From the IMG/VR virus record IMGVR_UViG_3300021599_002733: a stretch of 64,000 bases of DNA, one strand, 5' to 3'. The translations under genes and the position numbers were made by a program. This document shows positions 37,307-61,752 of the stretch, piece after piece (the first letter of the stretch is position 1; each line of letters begins with the position of its first letter). This stretch comes from a virus. The notes below the pieces were generated by a model, which saw only the letters and a program-made list of their open reading frames with translations, ran no database searches and had not been told where the DNA came from.

Positions 37307-37409
37307 TGGTCAGGACAGGATTCGAACCTGTAACCCCTTATTTATTTGAGTGATTTCTAGAGGAGCTCTCTCACTTGGGGAGTGCGTCTACCAATTCCGC
37401 CACCTGACC
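37307..37409 (-). ncRNA. tRNA-like RNA (Leu-type D arm, intact acceptor stem and T arm) with non-canonical, enlarged anticodon/variable region
   Basis: GGTCAGG/CCTGACC-A acceptor; TGGCGGAATTGGTAGACGC; ACAGG-TTCGAAT-CCTGT; 103 nt. Confidence 0.75.
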
Positions 37410-59983: not shown

Positions 59984-60014
59984 AGAAAACCTCACTATCT
60001 GTGAGGTTCTTTTT
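59984..60014 (-). terminator. Hairpin terminator after the tRNA cluster
   Basis: AACCTCAC-tatct-GTGAGGTT. Confidence 0.6.
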
Positions 60015-60015
60015 G

Positions 60016-60089
60016 TGGAGGATAACGGAGTCGAACCGTTGACCCCTTGCGTGCAAGGCAAGTGCTCTAGCCAGCTGAGCTAATCCCCC
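60016..60089 (-). tRNA. tRNA-Ala(TGC)
   Basis: GGGGGAT/ATCCTCC acceptor with G3:U70; loop CTTGCAC; GGTTCGACTCC. Confidence 0.95.
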
Positions 60090-60102
60090 TTTTATGGTCT
60101 TG

Positions 60103-60187
60103 CAGAGGATGAGAGATTCGAACTCCCGGTACCTTTCGGTACAACAGTTTTCAAGACTGCCGCAATCGACCACTCTGCCAATCCTCT
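60103..60187 (-). tRNA. tRNA-Ser(TGA)
   Basis: Loop CTTGAAA; long variable arm GTACC-GAAA-GGTAC; discriminator G. Confidence 0.95.
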
Positions 60188-60191
60188 AAAA

Positions 60192-60341
60192 TCAAACTTT
60201 GTTTATAGCGTAAACAGCAGCTTGTAGATGTGTGATAGCATCACTGAGATTTTTAGTTGGTGTTTCTTCATACTTCTGAGTGAGTTTCACTAGAGTAGTC
60301 TCTAGTGTTTTGATTTCAGATTGTATTTTTAACTTTTTCAT
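60192..60341 (-). CDS. Hypothetical protein (49 aa, not in track)
   Basis: MKKLKIQSEIKTLE...; late-type motif AATATGTATAA upstream. Confidence 0.5.
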   Translation of the reverse strand: MKKLKIQSEIKTLETTLVKLTQKYEETPTKNLSDAITHLQAAVYAINKV

Positions 60342-60389
60342 CTCGTTTATACATATTAAAAAAATGTAAGAGTTCTTAACGGGTTAATA

Positions 60390-60707
60390 TTATCCTTTAA
60401 GTACTTGTTTTGACGCTAATTTATCTAATCTAGAGTCAACGTAGCGTCTAGTTTCCTCTATTTGGTTCATTATGGTTTTTTCTACCATTGTGACATCTCG
60501 TCCACATTTTTCGAACTCCCTCCAAATATTTTGGTGCATTTCATCAATATGACGATGTATATCTTCTACATCACGCATGTAGTTGTTTTTAAATGTATGT
60601 AAATCTGAGTTTAACTTACTGATCTTAACCATACCCACAACAATAACAGATATAATAATTACTGCTACAATCGTAAGCATACCTAAAACGAATGATGTTA
60701 TTTCCAT
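60390..60707 (-). CDS. Membrane-anchored coiled-coil protein
   Basis: N-terminal TM; flanked by a 15-bp inverted repeat. Confidence 0.65.
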   Translation of the reverse strand: MEITSFVLGMLTIVAVIIISVIVVGMVKISKLNSDLHTFKNNYMRDVEDIHRHIDEMHQNIWREFEKCGRDVTMVEKTIMNQIEETRRYVDSRLDKLASKQVLKG

Positions 60708-60757
60708 GTTTTCTAGTTTTTAAAATGTCAAAGAACTCTTACATTATTTTATTTATG

Positions 60758-60829
60758 TATTCGGTACGGGGTTCGAACCCGTGCCTCCGCCGTGAAAGGG
60801 CGGCGTGTTAACCACTTCACTAACCGAAC
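60758..60829 (-). tRNA. tRNA-Glu(TTC)
   Basis: GTTCGGT/ACCGAAT acceptor; CCGCC-CTTTCAC-GGCGG; GGTTCGAACCC. Confidence 0.93.
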
Positions 60830-60830
60830 A

Positions 60831-61140
60831 TAACCCCTAGCAGTTTCTATTGATCAAGTAGACCATCTAGGGGTTGGTATTGGTTATATGAGTGTCTATA
60901 GAGGCAACGCGTTTGCACCTATAAAGCACCTCAACTTCCCAACACTCAAAAAGACCATCTGAGTGGGCAGATCTAACGGTATGCCCGATGGTACTTGACC
61001 TGTAGATTCTATCTACAGGGGGGTTCAAACTCTAGAACCGGAGAACTAGAGGGTTCCAACATTTTCATGTTGGTGAGGCAAAAGACCTACCCTGGTACGC
61101 TCGATCGCGGTCACCACAGTCCAGAAGCGTGGTAGGTACT
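60831..61140 (-). ncRNA. Unassigned, highly structured ncRNA candidate (about 300 nt)
   Basis: At least 7 hairpins plus long-range stems; GC-richer than the flanks; no ORF; one GAAA tetraloop on the minus strand. Confidence 0.6.
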
Positions 61141-61172
61141 GTTTTGGTATACGTATTGTACTCGGAGATGGT

Positions 61173-61286
61173 TTAGTATTCTTCTTTTTTCTTTGTTTTA
61201 GCTTTTGGATATCCTTTTTGTTTAGATGCCCACGAAACCCAACTTTGGAGTGTTTCGATTCTTGCTTTAGCTGATGTTTTACTCAT
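61173..61286 (-). CDS. Small basic protein (37 aa, not in track)
   Basis: MSKTSAKARIETLQSWVSW...; promoter at about 61310. Confidence 0.45.
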   Translation of the reverse strand: MSKTSAKARIETLQSWVSWASKQKGYPKAKTKKKEEY

Positions 61287-61338
61287 TTGTTTCTGTTTTA
61301 ATATACTTTAATATAAGAAAAATTTATTGTTTATCCAA

Positions 61339-61752
61339 CTATTTTTTAAAAACTTGAATGGTATGTTCTTTTTCTATCAAGTCTGTAAATTGCCCCTCAT
61401 ATCGTGTTGCTCGAACAATATGGTTGTCTATCCAATGGTAGTTTCCACCACGTGGTTTACCCATCAATAAACCATGGTATTTGAAGCCATGTTTGGCTAA
61501 CCACTGTTCTGTTACCGCTCTATGTTCCTCTACTCGAGAGGTAAAGAAGGTGATGATATGTCCTTCATCAAACCACTTGTTTAAAATTTCAAGTGCATCT
61601 GGGTATAGTTTAGCGTCTATCATGCGTTCAGGTTCCTCGTTTGGAATGTCATCGCATATGGTTCCATCTATGTCTATCAGATAATTTTTAACGTTGTTAG
61701 AGAGGATAGGGGATATTCGTTTACCGTCTTTTTCTAAATTGTGTAATTCCAT
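61339..61752 (-). CDS. HAD-superfamily phosphatase
   Basis: DIDGT; FTSR; MGKP; IDN. Confidence 0.8.
   Translation of the reverse strand: MELHNLEKDGKRISPILSNNVKNYLIDIDGTICDDIPNEEPERMIDAKLYPDALEILNKWFDEGHIITFFTSRVEEHRAVTEQWLAKHGFKYHGLLMGKPRGGNYHWIDNHIVRATRYEGQFTDLIEKEHTIQVFKK

Follow-up and report, generated by a model that had tools for sequence, protein, structure and literature searches.

In the 64,000-nucleotide (nt) stretch of viral DNA analysed here (IMG/VR virus record IMGVR_UViG_3300021599_002733; hereafter "the window"), the minus strand encodes, from approximately position 61142 to 60830, a real and structured RNA of 313 nt, which is the head of a tRNA-containing operon. This RNA is not contained in Rfam, yet, judged from reciprocal model matches, it belongs with the already known, cis-encoded antitoxin RNAs of the AbiF (Abi_2/AbiD-F) type III toxin-antitoxin systems of Bacteroidota, of which it is a new variant. 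The RNA family is modular and comprises, in 5′ to 3′ order, a domain A, the optional hairpins Ha, Hb and Hc, the core hairpin Hd/He, the helix Hf (enclosing Hg and Hh), and the terminator-like hairpin Ht (Table 1). An earlier note on this DNA had taken the element for a possibly new RNA in the manner of GOLLD and ROOL, i.e., lacking known affinity; this view does not hold in that form, given that the core is homologous to non-coding RNAs (ncRNAs) from a described class. This kinship makes the RNA less categorically novel, but it provides a testable function. As the best explanation overall, to which we assign about an even chance, we consider it an orphan, phage-encoded AbiFr-like RNA serving as a pseudo-antitoxin against AbiF abortive infection.

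AbiF is a HEPN RNase toxin and the ncRNA encoded upstream of it (AbiFr, also RCd22) acts as its antitoxin, according to two summaries of Zilberzwige-Tal et al. 2025 (PMC12737573; PMC13064643) and of a preprint by Saunier et al. (bioRxiv 10.1101/2025.04.15.648962). As described in these sources, AbiFr blocks the HEPN active site and is effective both in trans and in cis, its bulge is inhibitory, and the pair of Cas13 and CRISPR RNA (crRNA) is thought to be derived from the AbiF/AbiFr pair. Phages have been connected with such systems in different ways: in phage sk1, a hairpin located in the cos region acts as an inhibitor of AbiF (PMC13064643), phage PhiTE escapes ToxIN via a pseudo-ToxI RNA (Blower et al. 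2012, PMC3475682), and cyanophage S-CREM1 contains an orphan canonical abiF motif, which was left uninterpreted by its authors (PMC9964418).

The structure of the RNA is documented by about 77 distinct copies in uncultured phage and metagenome contigs, nearly all of which originate from freshwater samples. Relatives were gathered via contigs encoding the flanking proteins, by nhmmer—which first located them in contigs sharing the downstream gene for a 105-amino-acid (aa) protein—and then by scanning IMG/VR and JGI metagenomes for sequence patterns, with subsequent profile filtering; many of the 120 listed matches of the He-loop pattern in viral contigs were due to chance, and an nhmmer filter was applied to them. 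Covariation was assessed on 64 distinct sequences extending from Hd to Ht, corresponding to the 3′ two-thirds of the RNA (alignment A2). In the helices of this part, 90.3% of the cells are paired, versus 74.4% in shuffled alignments and 32-43% with the partners slid; 35 of the 44 pairs have changed on both sides, and not one of 500 shuffles reaches any of the observed measures. The excess of G.U over A.C appositions in the helices (122 versus 54) fits an RNA read from the minus strand. The minimum free energy on this strand is -117.6 kcal/mol (z = -5.1, 100 shuffles), with z = -2.5 for the plus strand.

In these respects the earlier note was borne out. All seven stem sets it had listed exist at the coordinates it gave; however, its outer stem 60889-95/60942-48 is specific to the window, and the covariation in the family supports Hf and Hg in its place. 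The lack of an open reading frame (ORF) and the raised GC content (0.45-0.48 versus approximately 0.33 in the flanks) had both been perceived from the letters; no ORF is conserved across the relatives, and length differences are not multiples of three. Neither a transfer-messenger RNA nor an RNase P RNA was recognized, with ARAGORN reporting three tRNAs only. The proposed cmscan search against Rfam 15 retrieved tRNAs only at the gathering threshold in the whole window, and no family for the RNA at E<=10 in positions 60000-61500 and in the loci of 15 relatives. A blastn comparison with 50,697 records of cultured phages matched the tRNA only, and a paper describing a phage RNA family homologous to AbiFr was not found in the literature.

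The link to AbiF was established with a covariance model of the phage Hd-to-Ht part (R1), which was applied to a sample of 151 genomes belonging to the same class (Bacteroidia) as a Flavobacteriales metagenome-assembled genome and matched two of them, G152 and G005. The G152 match lies directly after a Bacteroidota promoter (TTG..TACCTTTG; TAnnTTTG type), has the sequence AGUACUCGUUCAGCAUACCGUAAGAUCUGCUAGCGGGUC, and displays hairpin and loop as in phage Hd/He; next come an Rfam abiF motif just short of the threshold (36.3 bits at a gathering score of 37) and a 314-aa Abi_2 gene (PF07751, E 2e-56), the product of which is homologous over its full length to chain A of PDB 8VZ6, i.e., AbiF with its ncRNA antitoxin (E 4e-49). 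A type I restriction-modification operon harbours this ncRNA-abiF unit, which separates its hsdS from its hsdR. In this Bacteroidota clade, abiF plus ncRNA was observed as an insertion between these two genes in L339, L352, L355 and L360-L364, where the abiF stop codon precedes the hsdR start by 1-20 nt. The G005 match (L338:1501-1657, plus strand) is an orphan bacterial RNA with no abiF gene, composed of three hairpins, of which one is Hd/He, one abiF-like and one Ht-like; its neighbours are a SocA_Panacea antitoxin gene on one side and a DUF4041/T5orf172 gene on the other.

Freshwater Bacteroidota (among them Pseudarcicella, Flavobacterium and Cytophaga) contain many homologues of the G152 AbiF, and in nine of 11 distinct loci of this clade the upstream ncRNA opens with an Hd/He-type hairpin of the form CAGUACC..UUGCU-UCCCGUAAGAUC-AGC..GGUC-UUU (e.g., CAGUACCUGCGUUGCUUCCCGUAAGAUCAGCUCACAGGUCUUUC in L361). 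Seven of the nine hairpin-bearing loci are detected by R1 (E 4e-9 to 2e-4; 20.9-43.4 bits over the host RNAs), aligned from the 5′ end to the terminator. This two-tier hairpin (AGUACC..GGUC, with a 12-nt loop of the type (U/A)(A/C)CCGU(A/U)AGAUC), which in the host RNAs comes directly after the promoter, is likewise present in the phage RNA, and even the polymorphism of the loop-closing pair, GCA..UGC or GCU..AGC (A-U or U-A), is common to host and phage. In the opposite direction, a model built from ten host AbiFr sequences only (R2) aligned the minimal 123-nt phage RNAs L115, L122, L106, L318 and L189 over their entire length (positions 1-115; 46.6-34.1 bits, E 5e-7 to 3e-4 in 478 kb) and further phage copies partially, with phage scores of 30.8-46.6 bits overall. 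On the strength of these matches, we regard the homology of the 5′ hairpin Hd/He to the host AbiFr hairpin as firmly established. The remainder of the phage core appears colinear with host AbiFr, without independent significance: in the 3′ half, the R1/R2 alignments place CAUUAACACACCC with CAAUAAUACACCC, UACUA with CACUU, and GGGUUUU with GGGUUUU, while the 3′ half of the host RNA consists of AAUAAUACAC plus the abiF hairpin terminator, where the phage 3′ model alone (R3) yields E 0.1-4.

The features of the RNA and its immediate surroundings are compiled in Table 1.

Table 1. Predicted elements of the structured RNA and adjoining features in the window, in 5′ to 3′ order on the minus strand.
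Feature	Coordinates	Strand	Characteristics
Promoter-like box TACGTATA	61148..61155	-	6 nt 5′ of CAGUACC; start predicted at ~61142
Domain A, two-tier hairpin	61080..61140	-	H1 (G[U]ACCUACC/GGUAGGUC), H1b (ACGC/GCGU), 3′ bulge ACCAG, apical hairpin H2, then CUUUU; H1/H1b correspond to 61085-91/61131-37 and 61097-101/61126-30 of the earlier note
Ha, optional hairpin	61056..61073	-	CCAACAU-GAAA-AUGUUGG; stem 61056-62/61067-73
Hb, optional hairpin	61030..61051	-	CUCUAG...CUAGAG; stem 61030-35/61046-51
Hc, hairpin	60999..61019	-	CCUGUAGAU-AGA-AUCUACAGG; stem 60999-61006/61012-19
Hd/He, AbiFr-type two-tier hairpin	60953..60995	-	Stems 60954-59/60987-92 and 60965-69/60982-86; lower stem AG[U]ACCAUC/GAUGGUC, upper stem GGGCA/UGCCC, 3′ bulge ACUCA; 12-nt He loop at 60970-60981
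Hf	60876..60946	-	60939-46 with 60876-83; encloses loop GGGAAG...UAUAAC, Hg and Hh
Hg	60930-33 with 60889-92	-	Inside Hf
Hh, optional hairpin	60896-60924	-	Inside Hf; 60897-60923 in the earlier note
Ht, terminator-like two-tier hairpin	60834..60873	-	60832-40/60867-75 in the earlier note; lower stem CCCCUAG/CUAGGGG, 5′ bulge, upper stem with loop UUGAUCAA, 3′ bulge AAACUG with invariant ACU
Degenerate U tract UUAU	60830..60833	-	Joins Ht to tRNA-Glu
tRNA-Glu (UUC)	60757..60829	-	ARAGORN and Rfam, 68.7 bits; directly 3′ of the RNA

Within Hd/He, seven of 12 pairs covary and the He loop—UACCGUUAGAUC in the window, UACCGUAAGAUC in most relatives, with the family consensus U(A/C)CCGU(A/U)AGAUC—is nearly invariant. 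Compensatory changes are found in all eight pairs of Hf and all four of Hg (e.g., GAUAuUGG/CCAcUAUC versus UGCaCAG/CUGuaGCA), whereas Hh is absent from 22 of the 64 copies. Among the hairpins further upstream, Ha (CCGUUAU/AUAACGG, CCAAUG/CAUUGG) and Hb (CAUGG/CCAUG, UCGAG/CUCGA) covary and are missing from short variants, and some relatives possess a 65-nt insert after Hb; Hc covaries, is found in most copies of the C-only type and is absent in L212, L270 and L081. In domain A, 96% of the cells are paired and four pairs of H2 covary (approximately 30 distinct homologues); the near-invariance of H1 and H1b is partly a matter of ascertainment, because the pattern used for harvesting lies in H1b/H1. 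A pseudoknot CUGG/CCAG in domain A was considered and discarded, being not maintained in L119, L118, L122 and L331.

The terminator-like hairpin Ht, in which ten of 13 pairs covary, is followed by five to eight U residues in 52 of the 64 copies and, together with its U tract, appears to make the RNA a self-contained gene with its own intrinsic terminator in most relatives. This invites the explanation that the RNA is a cis-acting transcription attenuator or insulator, the hairpin plus U-tract modules of which—mainly Ht—terminate or meter transcription into the downstream tRNAs or genes, the AbiFr likeness being a borrowed regulatory cassette. In line with this, a co-oriented ORF follows at 13-52 nt in most loci, or a tRNA at 1-5 nt in nine, the U tract of the window is degenerate just where read-through into tRNA-Glu would be needed, and RCd22 is reported to cut abiF transcription through premature termination (bioRxiv 10.1101/2025.04.15.648962). 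However, the downstream genes belong to many unrelated families, an antiterminator pairing is not conserved (mutual information indicates nested helices only), and the invariant unpaired elements, namely the 12-nt He loop, the internal loop GGGAA.../UAUAAC of Hf (GGGAAA/UAUAAC) and the ACU of the Ht 3′ bulge, are needless for a plain terminator. Moreover, each of the 100 significant Ht matches belonged to a member of this family, and Ht never terminates other genes, so that a generic phage terminator was rejected as well. Taken together, we judge an attenuator rather unlikely. A riboswitch-type cis regulator was likewise dismissed, with 26 downstream gene clusters and no alternative pairing by mutual information.

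The apical loop of Ht (60850-60857; A2 columns 150-157) is a 6-8 nt palindrome, the sequence of which varies while staying palindromic: UGAUCA in most copies, UGGCCA in L217 and L244, UAGCUA in L206, and GACGUC in L219. Such a loop could be a kissing-loop dimer site. A kissing pair between the He and the Ht loops (GAUC with GAUC) was also considered, but is not maintained where the Ht loop changes. With regard to overall architecture, the long forms of 300-410 nt, to which the window RNA belongs, contain domain A, Ha, Hb with or without the 65-nt insert, Hc, Hd/He, Hf(Hg/Hh) and Ht; short forms are devoid of Ha/Hb and/or Hh, and the C-only forms (29 copies) begin at Hc or Hd, sometimes 0-3 nt past a tRNA, giving a length range of 123-410 nt for the family. 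RNAs of about 120 nt with only domain A and Ht, all of them equipped with a promoter-like box and a U tract of their own, were seen in L305, L308, L323, L336, L125 and L307 and show that domain A is an autonomous module.

This modularity (A+Ht, C only, A+B+C) could also speak for a trans-acting structured RNA unrelated to AbiF—either a stable RNA like those of the T4 tRNA cluster or a self-assembling one—in which Hd/He is a generic portable module. Such an explanation would accommodate the proximity of 55 of the 77 copies to tRNAs (within 3 kb), the retention of a 6-nt palindrome in the Ht loop through sequence changes, as expected of a kissing-loop dimer, and the absence of the canonical abiF motif. 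Nevertheless, of the only two R1 matches among the 178 Bacteroidota genomes searched, one heads abiF and the other is an orphan with an abiF-like hairpin; the same hairpin heads eight further loci fetched through AbiF homologues; R2, which contains host sequences exclusively, aligns the whole minimal phage RNA, beyond the hairpin; and 12 of the 64 copies carry a non-palindromic GACG tetraloop in Ht. We therefore consider an RNA without relation to AbiF unlikely.

As to the locus, the structured region (60830-61172) is placed between a 37-codon ORF (61173-61286, minus strand) and tRNA-Glu, and the neighbouring genes are all on the minus strand, co-oriented with the RNA. The box in the window resembles TTCGTATATT, the repeated early cassette promoter of the window; most relatives have ATATTTATA and host AbiFr genes TAnnTTTG, both 6 nt before CAGUACC, and the ATATTTATA-type box matches the motif 5′ of the 837-aa gene of the window. 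The box is a putative promoter from which transcription would start near 61142. At the opposite end, the adjacency to tRNA-Glu noted earlier holds, with the noted stretch stopping 1 nt before the tRNA. The U tract after Ht is broken in the window (GGGGUUAU, then G) and tRNA-Glu begins 4 nt on; similarly broken tracts occur in L332 and L091, both of which have a tRNA 2-5 nt 3′, whereas U6 is retained in other copies that abut a tRNA. Given the broken U tract and the abutting tRNA-Glu, it is plausible that RNase P cleavage at 60830/60829 sets the 3′ end of the RNA in this window, as had been suggested before.

Downstream of the RNA follow tRNA-Glu, the 105-aa ORF encoding a membrane coiled-coil protein, a 49-aa ORF, tRNA-Ser, tRNA-Ala and a plain terminator. 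The latter, CCUCACAGAUAGUGAGG with a U run at about 59985-60012 (minus strand), lies directly after tRNA-Ala and probably ends the transcription unit headed by the RNA. Elsewhere in the window, Rfam matched a tRNA of 103 nt at 37307-37409 (minus strand, 44.7 bits) that was not called by ARAGORN and might represent an intron- or insert-containing tRNA, or else an element resembling a tRNA. Upstream, a 137-aa HAD/PNKP-phosphatase-like gene is present at 61339-61752 (minus strand), which has relatives of 59-79% identity in more than 100 viral contigs (105); the RNA lies within 4 kb in almost none of these, and, hence, the adjacency of the two is not conserved.

The association with tRNA genes, which had been part of the earlier interpretation, is true for the window, but most copies in the family are self-contained. 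A tRNA abuts the 3′ end of the RNA in nine copies and the 5′ end in six, while 22 of the 77 have none within 3 kb; considering also the own terminator in most relatives, the tRNA link is frequent, but not defining. On the downstream side of the RNA, 26 gene clusters without mutual relation were distinguished, the largest covering 15 of the 77 copies, and include membrane coiled-coil proteins, a metallophosphoesterase resembling PDC-S10, GT2, and an adhesin of the type IX secretion system (T9SS). A search for a conserved neighbour protein was uninformative, the top clusters (DUF3310, metallophosphoesterase) occurring in at most 21 of 88 loci. The metallophosphoesterase gene was observed 41-49 nt 3′ of the RNA in L083 (1891-2607, plus strand) and its relatives L084, L127, L132, L275 and L301; its 238-aa product has a match (E 3e-72) to PDC-S10, one of the candidate defence families of PADLOC, and is, by this match, a phage-borne homologue of a candidate defence gene.

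These neighbourhoods also bear on the idea that the RNA is an antitoxin for a toxin of the phage itself, from a family that is not recognized by Pfam Abi_2 and is encoded nearby or elsewhere. AbiF systems do occur on prophages (bioRxiv 10.1101/2025.04.15.648962), the RNA is positioned directly 5′ of a gene, as is AbiFr, and the 238-aa downstream gene of some contigs has the match to PDC-S10 just described. Yet, the adjacent downstream genes vary by contig, although a toxin partner, if dedicated, should be conserved; furthermore, Abi_2 (PF07751) found no match in five RNA-bearing phage contigs of 95-140 kb, although these are only 59-83% complete, and the absence of a toxin gene from the phages is therefore not proven. 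Overall, a toxin partner of the phage's own seems quite improbable.

Returning to the orphan pseudo-antitoxin, the following course seems the most likely. A phage promoter would drive the RNA early in infection and, in this phage, RNase P would free it from the tRNA-containing transcript. Acting in trans, the RNA would bind the host AbiF dimer so that the RNase site stays blocked; once the labile AbiFr of the host is no longer replenished, the phage RNA would substitute for it and abortive infection would not be fired. On visual comparison, one design recurs in Hd/He, Ht, domain A and the abiF motif: the lower stem is GC-rich, the upper one short, the loop measures 7-12 nt, and the 3′ side has a bulge of 5-6 nt. 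For this bulge, many Hd/He copies and the Bacteroidota abiF motif have CACUx, Ht has xxACUx, and domain A has ACCAG; the common plan is a resemblance by inspection only. As domain A and Ht share the two-tier, 3′-bulge design, the long form might present up to three AbiFr-like hairpins in tandem (A, Hd/He, Ht). The placement among tRNA genes would allow the phage to block the RNase and, at the same time, to replace RNAs that it might cut. In this scheme, we infer the transcription start and ends, the binding to AbiF and the anti-defence effect. An anti-defence (decoy) function we rate slightly below an even chance, and the wider proposition that large freshwater Bacteroidota phages maintain, beside their tRNA genes, a dedicated modular RNA anti-defence gene, the tandem array of which sequesters the AbiF HEPN RNase, is offered more tentatively still.

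Several observations weigh against this interpretation. The phage RNAs lack the canonical abiF motif RF03085, for which binding and inhibition of AbiF have been demonstrated in the systems studied: none was found in positions 60000-61500 of the window (E<=10), in the loci of 15 relatives, or in five whole phage contigs (E<=1), while host loci score 34-43 bits. In the window, R2 reaches 17.9 bits (60923-60995; E 0.0015 in 601 nt) and covers Hd/He only. Comparison of R3 (phage Ht plus linker) with host abiF hairpins was not significant (best on-target E 0.6-4); consequently, the assignment of Ht to the abiF type is one of architecture, i.e., two tiers, a 3′ bulge of 5-6 nt containing ACU, and a U tract. 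Neither the more distant AbiF loci L347-L349, L351, L352 and L354 nor the more distant abiF loci retrieved through RF03085 possess the 5′ hairpin. A host counterpart of domain A was not encountered, as the 50 matches of its exact pattern in 185,579 species genomes were attributed to chance, none being confirmed by nhmmer. In a separate scan of 401 Bacteroidota genomes, the Hd/He loop pattern gave seven matches versus about six for a reversed control and is thus at chance level, with only a fragment matched by R1.

The reported escape of phages from AbiF is a single case, namely the hairpin of the lactococcal phage sk1. A toxin-less phage RNA family homologous to an antitoxin RNA makes counter-defence by RNA mimicry directly testable, both with the minimal form of 123 nt and with the long form of 313 nt. 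On the side of the bacteria, many AbiFr RNAs of Bacteroidota carry a conserved 5′ hairpin outside the Rfam abiF motif, and a function-linked annotation becomes available for an RNA that occurs in about 77 distinct contigs from uncultured phages and metagenomes. Should the pseudo-antitoxin interpretation be true, the family would be the first natural and widespread one whose RNAs act as pseudo-antitoxins against AbiF, and inhibitory RNAs for AbiF and for enzymes of the Cas13 type could be drawn from it.

Among known systems, AbiFr/RCd22 is closest to the phage RNA. Both start with CAGUACC near a promoter, and in both the two-tier 5′ hairpin has UaCCGUaAGAUC as its loop and GGUC-UUU at its base; the two appear to be colinear, the 5′ hairpin preceding a middle hairpin, an ACAC linker, a bulged, GC-rich terminator hairpin that carries ACU in its 3′ bulge, and a U tract; and the models R1 and R2 match reciprocally. 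In contrast, there is no abiF gene downstream of the phage RNA, the canonical motif UGCCUCUCNACGAUGCA in the apex of the terminal hairpin is replaced, the extra domains A, Ha, Hb, Hc and Hg/Hh are present, and the RNA resides in lytic-type phage contigs, often among tRNAs. The abiF RNA motif itself (Rfam RF03085) is reportedly from Weinberg et al. 2017. It shares with the phage RNA a two-tier hairpin with 3′ bulge as terminator, and S-CREM1 sets a precedent for its carriage by a phage without abiF (PMC9964418); however, Ht and Hd/He give no score against the model and the loop sequences differ. Neither a 37-nt hairpin of at least 37 bits with the loop CUCUCNACGAU was found in the window, the 15 relatives' loci and the five phage contigs, nor does the RNA lie directly 5′ of an abiF/Abi_2 gene, the next protein in the window being the 105-aa coiled-coil protein.

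As regards mechanism, the pseudo-ToxI of PhiTE and the sk1 hairpin are the nearest parallels, since in both a phage RNA imitates or replaces a host antitoxin to block an abortive-infection RNase, which is what is proposed here. Pseudo-ToxI differs in being a short repeat array directed at ToxN that has been shown experimentally, whereas the present family is known from sequence; the sk1 hairpin, also shown experimentally, is unlike AbiFr, while the present family is AbiFr-homologous and widespread. The stable RNAs rnaC/rnaD (species 1/2) of the T4 tRNA cluster are phage multi-hairpin RNAs near tRNA genes. With these, as with GOLLD and ROOL, the RNA of the window has in common that it is a phage multi-hairpin RNA often encoded beside tRNA genes; it differs from GOLLD and ROOL in that the Rfam searches described above returned no match to them, and from all of these RNAs, those of T4 compared by description only, in its much smaller size (123-410 nt) and in its clear relative in a defence system.

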